Shown piece after piece: positions 11,283-13,619 of a stretch of 18,745 nt of DNA. Origin of the DNA: Halodesulfurarchaeum sp. Lineage in GTDB: Archaea; Halobacteriota; Halobacteria; Halobacteriales; Halobacteriaceae. The notes below the pieces were generated by a model, which did no database searches, was not told the DNA's origin, and saw only the letters and a program-made list of their open reading frames with translations. A program made the position numbers and the translations under genes. Each line of letters starts with the position of its first letter. The first letter of the stretch is position 1. The stretch lies in the NCBI GenBank assembly GCA_042216015.1, contig JBDGUI010000017.1:8357-27101 (forward strand), in the 5' to 3' direction.

Positions 11283-11526
11283 TCCACCACTCTGTGGAGC
11301 AATCATCGAAAAACCAAGAGGGTCCCGTCAGGTGATCGGTCGAAGCGAACCATCCAGCATTTGTATCGCAACATATGATATATATCTCATCTATTGAGCA
11401 AACAAGGCGAATAAATCAATTCACAGGTACTAGCCGACACCCCTATTGGTTACTTCATGAACCGATCGAATTCAGGGTCACCCATCACCCCCTCCATGAA
11501 GAGAATGTATCCACCCATCTGTGGAG
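11283..11526. repeat. Two copies of the palindromic 17-mer TCCACCnnTCTGTGGAG (11283-11299, 11510-11526)
   Basis: TCCACCACTCTGTGGAG vs TCCACCCATCTGTGGAG, 15/17 identical; each is TCCAC-N6-GTGGA. Confidence 0.7.
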
Positions 11527-11639
11527 TAGCACTGTCTCTTCCCGTTTTGCCATGATACGGACAACGGATGAACCGAACCAACAGACCGAATGACGAAACC
11601 GAGACAACCACACAAGAAAGAATCACACGATCGGTACGA

Positions 11640-11674
11640 GAATAGTCTGAAGAATGCAGGAATAGTCTGAAGAA
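11640..11674 (+). repeat. Perfect 15-bp direct repeat GAATAGTCTGAAGAA, 20-bp period
   Basis: Copies at 11640-11654 and 11660-11674. Confidence 0.8.
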
Positions 11675-11985
11675 CTGCCAACTCGGCCACTCGCCTTTAC
11701 TCACATACACACTCATTCACTCACACCCACTCACATACCTTTGTGATCCTCCATCAATCTCGGGACCAGCTCCAACCAATATTGATCCAGCAAAAGAATC
11801 GATGGCACTCCTTCGAAATTCTGGGACTCAACCCACCCGAACCATTCAGTGATATTGAGATAGTATAACATGCGAGCCGATGACCTTCTGACGATTATTA
11901 TATTTAGATAGCTACAATATACATGTAATTTAGTACCTCAAATATTCAAATAATAAGGCAAAAAGCCGATGATAGGGACCTCAAT

Positions 11986-12013
11986 TTTCTAAATAAGATA
12001 GTTTATTTCTATA
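11986..12013. promoter_or_regulatory. dif-like Xer recombination site TTTCTAAATAA-GATAGT-TTATTTCTATA
   Basis: 11-bp arms with a 6-bp spacer and the dif core ATAA-N6-TTAT (AAATAA/TTATTT perfect inverted repeat); 40 nt upstream of an operon encoding a Xer-like recombinase. Confidence 0.65.
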
Positions 12014-12017
12014 GCTG

Positions 12018-12028
12018 CAACTTTTAAG
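12018..12028 (+). promoter_or_regulatory. TATA box of the RHH/wHTH-recombinase operon
   Basis: CAACTTTTAAG, with TTTTAA at 12022-12027, about 26-31 nt upstream of ATG 12053. Confidence 0.6.
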
Positions 12029-12052
12029 GCGGTCGTCCACGAATCCCTCGGT

Positions 12053-12439
12053 ATGACCGAGATGGACGAAGCTCACGAACGCGTCGCGATAACCACCTAC
12101 GTGCCATCCTTTCAGAAGGCCGAGTGGGAAAGCCACGCCGAGGCCCTCGACATGAGTCAATCCGAATTCATCAGAACAATGGTCCAGGCCGGCCGGAGAG
12201 GGTTCGGCGATTCCACACCCGAGGAACCCGACTCTCGAAGGGCAAACCCTGGGGGTGACGTCCGGCAAACGGTGTTGCAGCGACTCGAATCACAGGGAGA
12301 ACTGTCCTGGGAGGAGCTCTACGACGAAATTGCAACTGACCTCGAAACTCGGGTCGAGGAGGCAATTATCGAACTCCAGGAGGAGGGGTTGATCACGCAC
12401 AAACCCCGTAATGGAACCTACGCCATCGAAGACCAATGA
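12053..12439 (+). CDS. Small putative DNA-binding protein (DUF5805-like; N-terminal ribbon-helix-helix-like, C-terminal winged-helix-like)
   Basis: RVAITTYVP (beta) ...WESHAEALDMSQSEFIRTMVQAG (RHH-like); LSWEEL...EEAIIELQEEGLITHKPRNGTYAI (wHTH-like); stop overlaps the recombinase start (ATGA). Confidence 0.75.
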   Translation: MTEMDEAHERVAITTYVPSFQKAEWESHAEALDMSQSEFIRTMVQAGRRGFGDSTPEEPDSRRANPGGDVRQTVLQRLESQGELSWEELYDEIATDLETRVEEAIIELQEEGLITHKPRNGTYAIEDQ

Positions 12440-13446
12440 CGAACACGGCAGAGCCAATCGAGTATTTTCTCGAGGACATGACCCATCACGGTCGCTCCGA
12501 GCGGACGATAGACGCCTACGACCGCGTCTTACATCAGTTCGAGGCCTCACTCGACGAGCAAACGACGTTGCACTCCGTCACCCACCGGGATTGTCTCGCC
12601 TGGATTTCGACGATTCGAGACGAGAAGGCCGAAAGCACAGTTGCGAGTTATGCTGCATACCTCCATCGATTCTACGCATACATGAACGAGGTGGGGACTT
12701 TCGATCGGAATCCCATGACGCTCGTCATGGAAGAACTCGACGAACAGATCACAACGGATCCGAGTCGACGGGACATCTCCGTGCCGGAAATGCGAGAGTT
12801 CGTCGGGTCAGTGACTCACCCGTTGGCCAAAGCAGTCATCGTAACCCTGCTTAAGACGGGAATTCGGGCTGGAGAGGCCTGTAACCTTGATTTGCGGGAC
12901 ATAAACGTCTCGGATCCGCCGATCCCGACTGGCCCGATTCGACCCCAGATCAAGGGACGCGAAAACACGATCTACGTGTCGAACGAACCGAGCCGGGGGA
13001 AAACGTTCAACGGTGAAACACGAGCGATGTCGAACAAACGAAAGCGAGAGACGGTCATTCCCGTGGACAACGAACTCCGATCCGTCCTCATTCGCTGGAT
13101 CACCATTCGACCCGATACGCCGTCACCGGCGGAACCGCTTTTCACGAACACGACACGCAACTGGGGTACTCGGTTGACGGGAAACGACGTTCACCATCTG
13201 GTCACGACCCATACCAGCGATTGGGGTTGGTACGAATCCGGAGCGGGGGCTGGAGAGAACGTGACACCGCACTATTTCCGACACTTCTTCACCACGCACC
13301 TCCGTGACCGAACCGGCGATCGAGGAATCGTAAAGTACCTCCGAGGGGACGTCGCGACTGACGTGATCGACACCTATACCCACAATTGGGGTGACCGCGT
13401 CCGAGCGGTCTACGAATCGAATATCTACTCGTTGCTCGACGAATGA
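12436..13446 (+). CDS. Tyrosine recombinase, XerC/D (archaeal XerA)-like
   Basis: N-terminal SERTIDAY...STVASY core-binding domain; catalytic R (TGIRAGE), K (NKRK), H-x-x-R (PHYFRH), Tyr (DTYTH). Confidence 0.92.
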   Translation: MTNTAEPIEYFLEDMTHHGRSERTIDAYDRVLHQFEASLDEQTTLHSVTHRDCLAWISTIRDEKAESTVASYAAYLHRFYAYMNEVGTFDRNPMTLVMEELDEQITTDPSRRDISVPEMREFVGSVTHPLAKAVIVTLLKTGIRAGEACNLDLRDINVSDPPIPTGPIRPQIKGRENTIYVSNEPSRGKTFNGETRAMSNKRKRETVIPVDNELRSVLIRWITIRPDTPSPAEPLFTNTTRNWGTRLTGNDVHHLVTTHTSDWGWYESGAGAGENVTPHYFRHFFTTHLRDRTGDRGIVKYLRGDVATDVIDTYTHNWGDRVRAVYESNIYSLLDE

Positions 13447-13619
13447 ACGACATATAAACCATATTTCGCTATATCAAATCGGGGGGTCGGGATTGATGTG
13501 TTTTTGATCGAAATGAGCCATTCAATGCACAGAGGTGTGCCAAAATAGCCGTGGCAAAATCTGAGGAGCGACACCGACCCGGTTGGGTTTAAGCCAGTTG
13601 GCCAGCAAGGAGCAATCGG

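Follow-up and report, generated by a model that had tools for sequence, protein, structure and literature searches.

The DNA analysed here (the window) is an 18,745-nt stretch of Halodesulfurarchaeum sp. (assembly GCA_042216015.1, contig JBDGUI010000017.1, positions 8,357 to 27,101), taken from a metagenome-assembled genome (MAG) of 1.68 Mb that is 86.6% complete. It carries a two-gene operon, encoding a small protein of the DUF5805 family and a tyrosine recombinase related to the Xer enzymes, and a conserved palindrome (U) in the putative promoter of that operon. The comparisons described below incline us, by no great measure, to regard the palindrome as a dif-like recombination site of the adjacent enzyme, which probably doubles as an operator. 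The operon and its upstream element comprise:

11978-12021 (no strand): extended symmetric element of ~44 bp, with the inner arms and an outer CA/TG pair at -18/-17 and +17/+18 from the palindrome centre
11986-12013 (no strand): dif-like 28-mer, TTTCTAAATAA-GATAGT-TTATTTCTATA, with a perfect inner repeat, AAATAA/TTATTT
11991-12008: core of palindrome U, AAATAAG-ATAG-TTTATTT, with its centre between 11999 and 12000, delimited from conservation and a sequence logo
12022-12027 (+ strand): TATA-like box, TTTTAA, of the putative promoter
12053-12439 (+ strand): DUF5805 protein of 128 aa (PF19121, E = 5.5e-17), modelled as having an N-terminal part like the ribbon-helix-helix (RHH) fold, an acidic, disordered linker and a C-terminal winged-helix part
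12436-13446 (+ strand): Xer-like tyrosine recombinase of 336 aa

The ATG of the 128-aa open reading frame (ORF), at 12053, is located ~28 nt past the centre of the TATA-like box, a distance that fits a leaderless mRNA. The two ORFs overlap in an ATGA at 12436-12439, suggesting translational coupling. The original prediction had described the 28-mer as a candidate dif site of exact 11-6-11 geometry, and both this geometry and the perfect inner repeat were confirmed from the sequence. The 28-mer is also unique, with one occurrence in the MAG at up to three mismatches and none for a reversed-pattern control.

Conservation upstream of orthologous operons, on which the original prediction hung, was examined in 103 distinct upstream regions representing many haloarchaeal genera. 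The pattern ATAAG-N4-CTTAT, with up to two mismatches in its ten specified bases, was found in 87 of these regions; of 2060 random windows drawn from the same loci, 14 contained it, and of 2060 shuffled sequences, 112. In all 87, its centre was located 52-62 nt before the ATG. The logo revealed a strong 18-bp core, RRATAAG-N4-CTTATYY (positions ±3 to ±9), a weak symmetric C/G preference reaching ±12, and an outer pair at ±17 to ±22. The predicted arms are, therefore, conserved only in part: the 18-bp core stands, and the arms beyond it are retained incompletely. Position ±3 breaks the symmetry, being G in the left half and mostly T in the right. The outer pair comprises CA/TG at ±17/18, with A:T at ±17 in 65 of the 87 loci, and covariation maintains complementarity at ±19 (CG 42, GC 19; z = 8.2) and ±22 (z = 6.1) relative to column shuffles, z-scores that overstate the case because the sequences are related. 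Several lineages have changed both arms jointly (TCTAAG..CTTAGA, TCTTAG..CTAAGA, and GATCAAG..CTTGATC), and a TATA-like block is conserved across loci at +26 to +31 from the centre. On these comparisons, the palindrome is a real, ancient, and putatively protein-bound site. It also has the dif layout, namely an inverted arm on either side of a 6-8 bp centre, with TAA..TTA.

A strict form of the 18-mer pattern was searched for in ten genomes, five of which (G002, G011, G016, G019, and G025) contained a single match, at the operon. In three, the operon site deviates from the pattern, which leaves them without a strict match; of the remaining two, one had a match elsewhere, and the other, a genome of 45% GC, had two matches, which is chance level. 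In an even, order-wide draw of 151 good genomes, the pattern was matched in 87, compared to 19 for the reversed control. Over the 103 loci, the site was found in its standard place in 81 by the strict pattern and in about eight more as symmetric variants, was displaced by 0.14-14.7 kb in ten, and could not be placed in the remaining four. One strict match (G012 contig 1, 1,118,171) precedes an unrelated gene by ~22 nt; the genome has 70% GC, at which a match by chance is improbable.

Some genomes contain a second strict match, which preceded secFD in five of the six cases inspected. On this ground, the palindrome was considered as a general promoter element, belonging to the wider regulon of an unrelated transcription factor: GGATAAG-N4-CTTATTC stands ~35 nt before the secF start in those five (L148-L152), and a degenerate palindrome precedes secF in the window's own genome (G000 contig 4, ~35,500). 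However, four genomes have changed operon arms (CTTAG or CTAAG types) and yet retain the canonical CTTATTC in the secF element, so the two elements are not read by one co-evolving protein, and the invariant part of the secF element, its right arm, occupies the expected position of the TATA box. We consider this explanation very unlikely, and the comparison argues for a dedicated protein that reads U.

The assignment of the second gene to the tyrosine recombinases was borne out by Pfam matches to the phage-integrase family and to an N-terminal SAM-like domain. One orthologue each was found in 34 of 41 related genomes and in all 18 genomes that are at least 90% complete, with 56-84% identity, and relatives are encoded in 522 species-level genomes. 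Across 21 aligned orthologues, the mean column identity is 70%, and the enzyme is the only tyrosine recombinase that was found to be conserved among the related genomes. None of the 41 haloarchaeal genomes yielded a hit above the curated XerA cut-off. The nearest solved proteins by family profile are the XerA of Thermoplasma acidophilum (5hxy, 8.6e-15), XerD (1a0p, 5.5e-14), and the XerA of Pyrococcus abyssi (4a8e, 2.3e-13). Arg144, the NKRKR lysines near position 201, His279, Arg282, and Tyr314 are invariant and align with the catalytic residues of T. acidophilum XerA. By these comparisons the enzyme is classed as Xer-like, below the curated XerA cut-off. A second XerA-like recombinase of 326 aa is encoded in the same MAG, at a contig end (G000 contig 10, ~219-1199, L004), and is 94% identical in one congener. 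It scored 180.6 bits on the XerA model and was rejected as the true XerA since it was present in only 9 of the 41 relatives, a patchy distribution that makes it probably mobile. Haloferax volcanii has 12 xerC/D-like genes, the role of which is unknown (PMC7776575).

The call of the small gene in the original prediction held as well: its product matches DUF5805, and a structural model has an RHH-like N-terminal part and a winged-helix C-terminal part. Its gene lies directly upstream of the recombinase gene in all 30 loci of the first search, and in 109 of 110 after the addition of 80 named loci, the sole exception being L088, where no DUF5805 match was found beside the recombinase. An AlphaFold2 model based on a 28-sequence alignment (mean predicted local distance difference test score, pLDDT, of 77.4) begins with a short N-terminal segment and two helices, which an acidic, disordered linker joins to a C-terminal domain of helix-helix-hairpin form. 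A Foldseek search with this model gave no match at E ≤0.001. The N-terminal part superposed locally on the RHH domains of CopG (root-mean-square deviation of 2.1 over 41 columns), ORF56 (TM-score by target of 0.82), and PutA, these three all with E of at least 0.2, and on those of antitoxins, and the C-terminal part gave a sub-threshold Pfam match to the GntR-type winged helix. A full-text literature search for DUF5805 gave no papers. RHH proteins are classic autorepressors. Structure prediction of the recombinase-DUF5805 complex gave an interface score (ipSAE, interaction prediction score from aligned errors) of 0.51 (runs of 0.51, 0.47, and 0.54), compared to 0.00 for the best of three controls. 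The runs agreed in at least 80% of contacts, with a partner pLDDT of at least 71. In calibration, a score this high was obtained for 116 of 157 solved complexes and for 2 of 215 mismatched pairs, and the range up to 0.60 held only 18 of the 157 together with both mismatches, counts that hold roughly here since custom alignments were used. The prediction lends weak support to an association of the two proteins. The DUF5805 protein is the likely second DNA-binding partner of the module.

Comparative evidence for recombination at the palindrome came from loci in which foreign DNA lies exactly at its centre. Five genomes that seemingly lacked the site (three Halosimplex species, a further Halosimplex with a short displacement, and one MAG) were each found to contain one perfect AAATAAGGGTCTTTATCC, located 0.14, 2.2, 2.6, 3.0, and 14.7 kb upstream of the operon. 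Among five further genomes searched, displaced sites were found at ~0.27-0.42 kb and 7.3 kb, and one of the five was left unplaced. Junctions were aligned in five genomes, four with inserts of 2.1-14.6 kb and one with a 7.2-kb insert. In each, the intact palindrome is distal, together with the AT-rich spacer and an inverted copy of a second motif (motif D, see below), and all that is left at the operon promoter is the right arm with its flank. Aligned with each other, the junction copies are identical at 3-4 of 20 positions to the left and at 12-15 of 20 to the right, with the switch at the palindrome centre. The displaced palindrome stays perfect and genome-unique, and a congener, Halosimplex halobium (L095), retains the uninterrupted form of the locus.

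The contents of the inserts differ, and only two of them (L141 and L142) share segments, in opposite orientation. The 14.6-kb insert of L142 encodes a pleolipovirus-type Rep (PF07232; phrog_10542, 787 bits) that is 33-35% identical to the Rep proteins of HHPV-1, HHPV-2, and Humcor2, together with four more viral PHROG families and an IS66 transposase. A six-frame search of this insert gave no PF00589 match, and no integrase was found among the ORFs of the others. An integrase-less insert flanked by one intact and one hybrid site is, to judge from the sequences, the pattern left by elements that use a host Xer enzyme, and the comparisons point to crossovers at the palindrome in vivo. HHPV-1 contains no U-like site at up to two mismatches, and Humcor2 was rejected as a free virus with a U-like attP, having its own integrase and a tRNA attP. 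In Halosimplex amylolyticum (L126), the displaced palindrome is inverted relative to the operon; this orientation and that of the segments shared by L141 and L142 hint at inversions between sites.

The module is further bounded by a motif that was not part of the original prediction, and that appears in the window as follows:

13450-13483 (+ strand): motif D, ACATATAAACCATATTTCGCTATATCAAATCGGG, asymmetric, ~30 bp, directly past the recombinase stop (51.6 bits)
11354-11387 (- strand): D', a weak inverted copy of motif D (21.2 bits), 699 nt upstream of the DUF5805 ATG
11388-11985 (no strand): spacer from D' to U, low in GC (44%, compared to 57% for the operon) and apparently non-coding

In 95 of the 103 loci, motif D (core RTAAAYYNYATNNYGCTATAY..AAT) follows the recombinase stop within 135 nt; in five it is farther downstream, and three lack it. 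An inverted upstream copy of at least 17 bits was present in 77 of the 103, the inverted pair bracketing the whole module, and only 1 of 178 hits had any other place or orientation. Of these figures, only the upstream copies constitute an independent test, because the matrix was built from the downstream ones. The spacer between D' and U ranges from 253 to 1922 bp across haloarchaea and has a lower GC content than the operon in 78 of 80 loci. Genome-wide, five genomes gave 6-11 D hits each, compared to 1-3 for the control; D-like copies occur on secondary contigs (G011, G016, and G019), in inverted pairs 200-350 bp apart, and around a RIO2 kinase gene. These copies, and the clusters that stand apart from recombinases, indicate that D is not specific to this enzyme. 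On one 170-kb secondary contig (G011 contig 2, ~148,950-149,330, L137), an inverted D pair lies at, or overlaps, the start of a 419-aa tyrosine recombinase ORF.

Haloarchaea have several replication origins. Motif D was considered as an origin recognition box and rejected, since no orc1/cdc6 gene lies beside the D clusters inspected, and as a known RNA, since it has no Rfam match. A BLAST search of PLSDB plasmids for motif D gave nothing better than E = 0.7, and the 18 targets listed in the CdrS paper, consulted for a relation of D or U to the CdrS motif, include no recombinase. In many genera (L082, L092, L109, and L127), a conserved gene of ~299 aa is found on the right side of the module; in Halorussus halobius and Haloarchaeobius iranensis (L065 and L123), this gene is on the left, inverted and immediately adjacent to D'. 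This placement suggests rearrangement breakpoints at D. A simple inversion of the D'-D segment in these two was rejected: the neighbouring gene has switched sides, but the distances differ and the second flank is unmatched.

Reading the palindrome as a recombination site is favoured because of its dif-type core, its uniqueness, its link to the sole conserved Xer-like enzyme, its retention away from the promoter, and the junctions at its centre. In the corresponding mechanism, two recombinase monomers would bind the inverted arms, each on RRATAA at one side of the 6-bp centre, and the two sites carried by a chromosome dimer would be synapsed and exchanged; circular elements with a look-alike site would also be inserted at the palindrome. 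The right arm ends ~17 bp before the TATA-like box, so the bound protein probably sets the transcription of its own operon, and the DUF5805 protein could act as an operator-binding autoregulator, as an architectural or directionality factor, or as both. The original prediction, a chromosome dimer-resolution site at which bound recombinase autoregulates the operon and the small protein is accessory, is partly supported.

Several observations weigh against a dif site. The recombinase scored 116 bits on the NCBIfam model XerA_Arch (NF040815), which has an equivalog cut-off of 220, and the histidine of its LGH motif (the [H/W] position) is replaced by an invariant Arg303-Gly304-Asp305. In three multi-contig genomes (G011, G016, and G019), the secondary contigs gave no strict match, which counts against the reading because each replicon should need a resolution site. 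The distance from the palindrome to the start codon is fixed within ~10 nt in the 87 loci, a constraint that would be required of an operator but not of a dif site. The strong information is confined to 7-bp half-sites ~10-11 bp apart, which is a typical footprint of an RHH or helix-turn-helix dimer, and the adjoining gene encodes such a protein. Motif D, which likewise adjoins the recombinase gene, is no less conserved than U. Foreign integrases that were lost later could equally explain the direct repeat on either side of the inserts (+3 to +20), as their att core, and the five insertion cases come from few lineages, three of them Halosimplex, with two inserts sharing inverted segments.

Fixed promoter spacing and an RHH partner are the reasons why a purely regulatory role keeps a modest share of our belief, as a doubtful but serious rival. 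In that account, the palindrome is the autoregulatory operator of the DUF5805 protein, possibly bound by a dimer of dimers, and the recombinase acts on another sequence, such as motif D. The position of the palindrome ~17 nt before the TATA-like block in its own promoter accords with this, as do the RHH-like fold of the partner (albeit from a model and local Foldseek matches) and the arrangement of the half-sites, which, about one helical turn apart and with outer symmetric positions, leave room for four DNA-binding domains. The proximity of D to the recombinase stop and its copies on secondary contigs would suit D as the true substrate; however, D also surrounds the RIO2 kinase gene and occurs in clusters unrelated to recombinases. 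Also weighing against an operator alone are a perfect, genome-unique palindrome that is kept 2-15 kb from the operon with unrelated genes now downstream of it, a detached promoter that keeps a decaying right arm alone although both genes are intact, and insertion junctions that switch at the palindrome centre. Should the operator role alone be true, this would be an ordinary autoregulated operon, with the real dif site elsewhere and still to be found.

The same junctions bear on another account, which we judge improbable, in which the promoter region is an integration hot spot, an attachment site for elements whose integrases have since been lost, and the resident enzyme is the domesticated integrase of an ancient D-bounded element, with a role other than dimer resolution. 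It would explain the inverted D copies around the module, the GC content of the module and upstream spacer (below that of the surroundings), the ~18-nt direct repeats that flank the inserts like att cores, and the flanking gene found inverted on the opposite side in two lineages; haloarchaeal integrase operons with small winged-helix helpers do exist, as described for SNJ2 (PMC5861418). However, the gene pair is single-copy across the order, at the identities given above, with no sign of mobility, none of the five inserts was found to hold an integrase, and the repeat boundary coincides with the palindrome centre in every case. A mobile integrase island, suggested by the low-GC zone of the window, was rejected as well: the pair is single-copy and order-wide, no direct repeats flank it, and the only tRNA gene is 5 kb away.

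The reading of the palindrome as a recombination site can be set against earlier work. The remark in the original prediction that no module of this kind had been characterized needs correction, as a putative dif site has been named in two haloarchaea and a xerA/dif module has been described for some archaea (PMC5357621). The two haloarchaea are H. volcanii and Halobacterium salinarum (PMC11840125, 2025), for which inverted repeats with TAA-N6-8-TTA, the one feature common to characterized archaeal dif sites, were sought near the H. volcanii chromosome-domain boundaries that were observed by Hi-C and depend on SMC (structural maintenance of chromosomes). Like the palindrome described here, the published element is an imperfect inverted repeat with TAA-N6-8-TTA directly before a conserved operon with a xerA homologue, and the Haloferax loci L070, L076, and L077 have the same palindrome-operon arrangement. 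The published H. volcanii element is likely to be this palindrome; the identity is unconfirmed because the published sequences are figure images that could not be read, and this too weighs on the confidence in our reading. Compared with the available text of that paper, the present analysis adds the DUF5805 partner, class-wide conservation, the insertions at the site, and motif D.

The archaeal XerA/dif systems of P. abyssi, Thermococcus kodakarensis, T. acidophilum, and Saccharolobus solfataricus resemble the haloarchaeal module in having a single tyrosine recombinase and a ~28-bp site with arms around 6 bp; the dif site of T. kodakarensis shares the ATAA..TTAT core and a location in a long AT-rich non-coding stretch. 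In the Thermococcales, however, dif is not beside xerA (PMC2958812), whereas the haloarchaeal site adjoins the recombinase gene, and the haloarchaeal enzyme differs in its score below the XerA cut-off, an insertion of ~40 residues, its Arg-Gly-Asp, and its coupled RHH/winged-helix partner. One recombinase with a site linked to its gene is also found in XerS/difSL, XerH/difH, and the archaeal xerA/dif module (PMC5357621), but, as far as the available text of that source extends, those have no co-translated DNA-binding partner and their site lies outside the promoter, whereas both features are present here. FtsK controls the reaction in bacteria, and archaea are without FtsK (PMC8371274). DNA-binding regulators act as Xer accessory factors beside the core site in the resolution of plasmids at cer and psi by ArgR and PepA (PMC5357621); these are unlinked host regulators bound to ~180 bp of accessory DNA.

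The insertions resemble the IMEX (integrative mobile elements exploiting Xer) elements, such as CTXphi, TLCphi, and the gonococcal island, in which integrase-less DNA is present at the host resolution site with one intact and one defective hybrid site. Mobile elements of this type have served to find dif in Legionellales (PMC9765430). The IMEX cases that have been described are all bacterial, the literature searches made gave no archaeal case, and the haloarchaeal case rests on sequence comparison. The integrase operon of SNJ2, orf3-orf2-int, is similar in that a haloarchaeal tyrosine recombinase is co-transcribed with small, overlapping upstream genes, one of which encodes a winged-helix protein, and the helper proteins promote integration (PMC5861418). 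However, SNJ2 is a mobile pleolipovirus with a tRNA target, whereas the pair described here is a universal, single-copy feature of the chromosome, and DUF5805 belongs to another family.

A more far-reaching model can be put forward only tentatively. In this model, the locus is a three-part, self-regulating dimer-resolution module with a divergent Xer enzyme, a DUF5805 protein in an FtsK-like controlling role (activation or directionality), and a dif site in its own promoter; integrase-less pleolipovirus-like elements would lysogenize through it, and the inverted D copies and AT-rich spacer would make the Hi-C domain boundary. If this were true, the pleolipovirus-like elements would be the first archaeal IMEX elements. 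Viewed more narrowly, the analysis points to a single gene pair and a single 18-bp site as the candidates, in organisms amenable to genetics, and adds a partner protein, DUF5805, a possible integration route for integrase-less haloarchaeal viruses, and a connection with the SMC-dependent domain boundary that has been reported for this locus.

The remaining features of the window concern the surroundings of the module. The gene pair lies within a zone of 41-57% GC in a region of 60-69% GC, and its neighbours, as identified by Pfam, are a PhoU/MazE-domain gene on one side and an ADP-forming acetyl-CoA synthetase gene on the other. The ~1 kb upstream of the pair contains short ORFs for which family searches gave no match. 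Within the spacer, an exact 15-nt direct repeat pair, GAATAGTCTGAAGAA, with copies 20 nt apart, is present at 11640-11674, and is followed at 11681-11738 by imperfect, ACTCA-rich repeats of 28 nt. Closer to the palindrome, the segment at 11897-11925, ATTTAGATAGCTACAA, resembles by eye the right arm and flank of U, ATTTCTATAGCTGCAA (~12006-12021), and could be either the half-site remnant of an old insertion or a chance match in AT-rich DNA.

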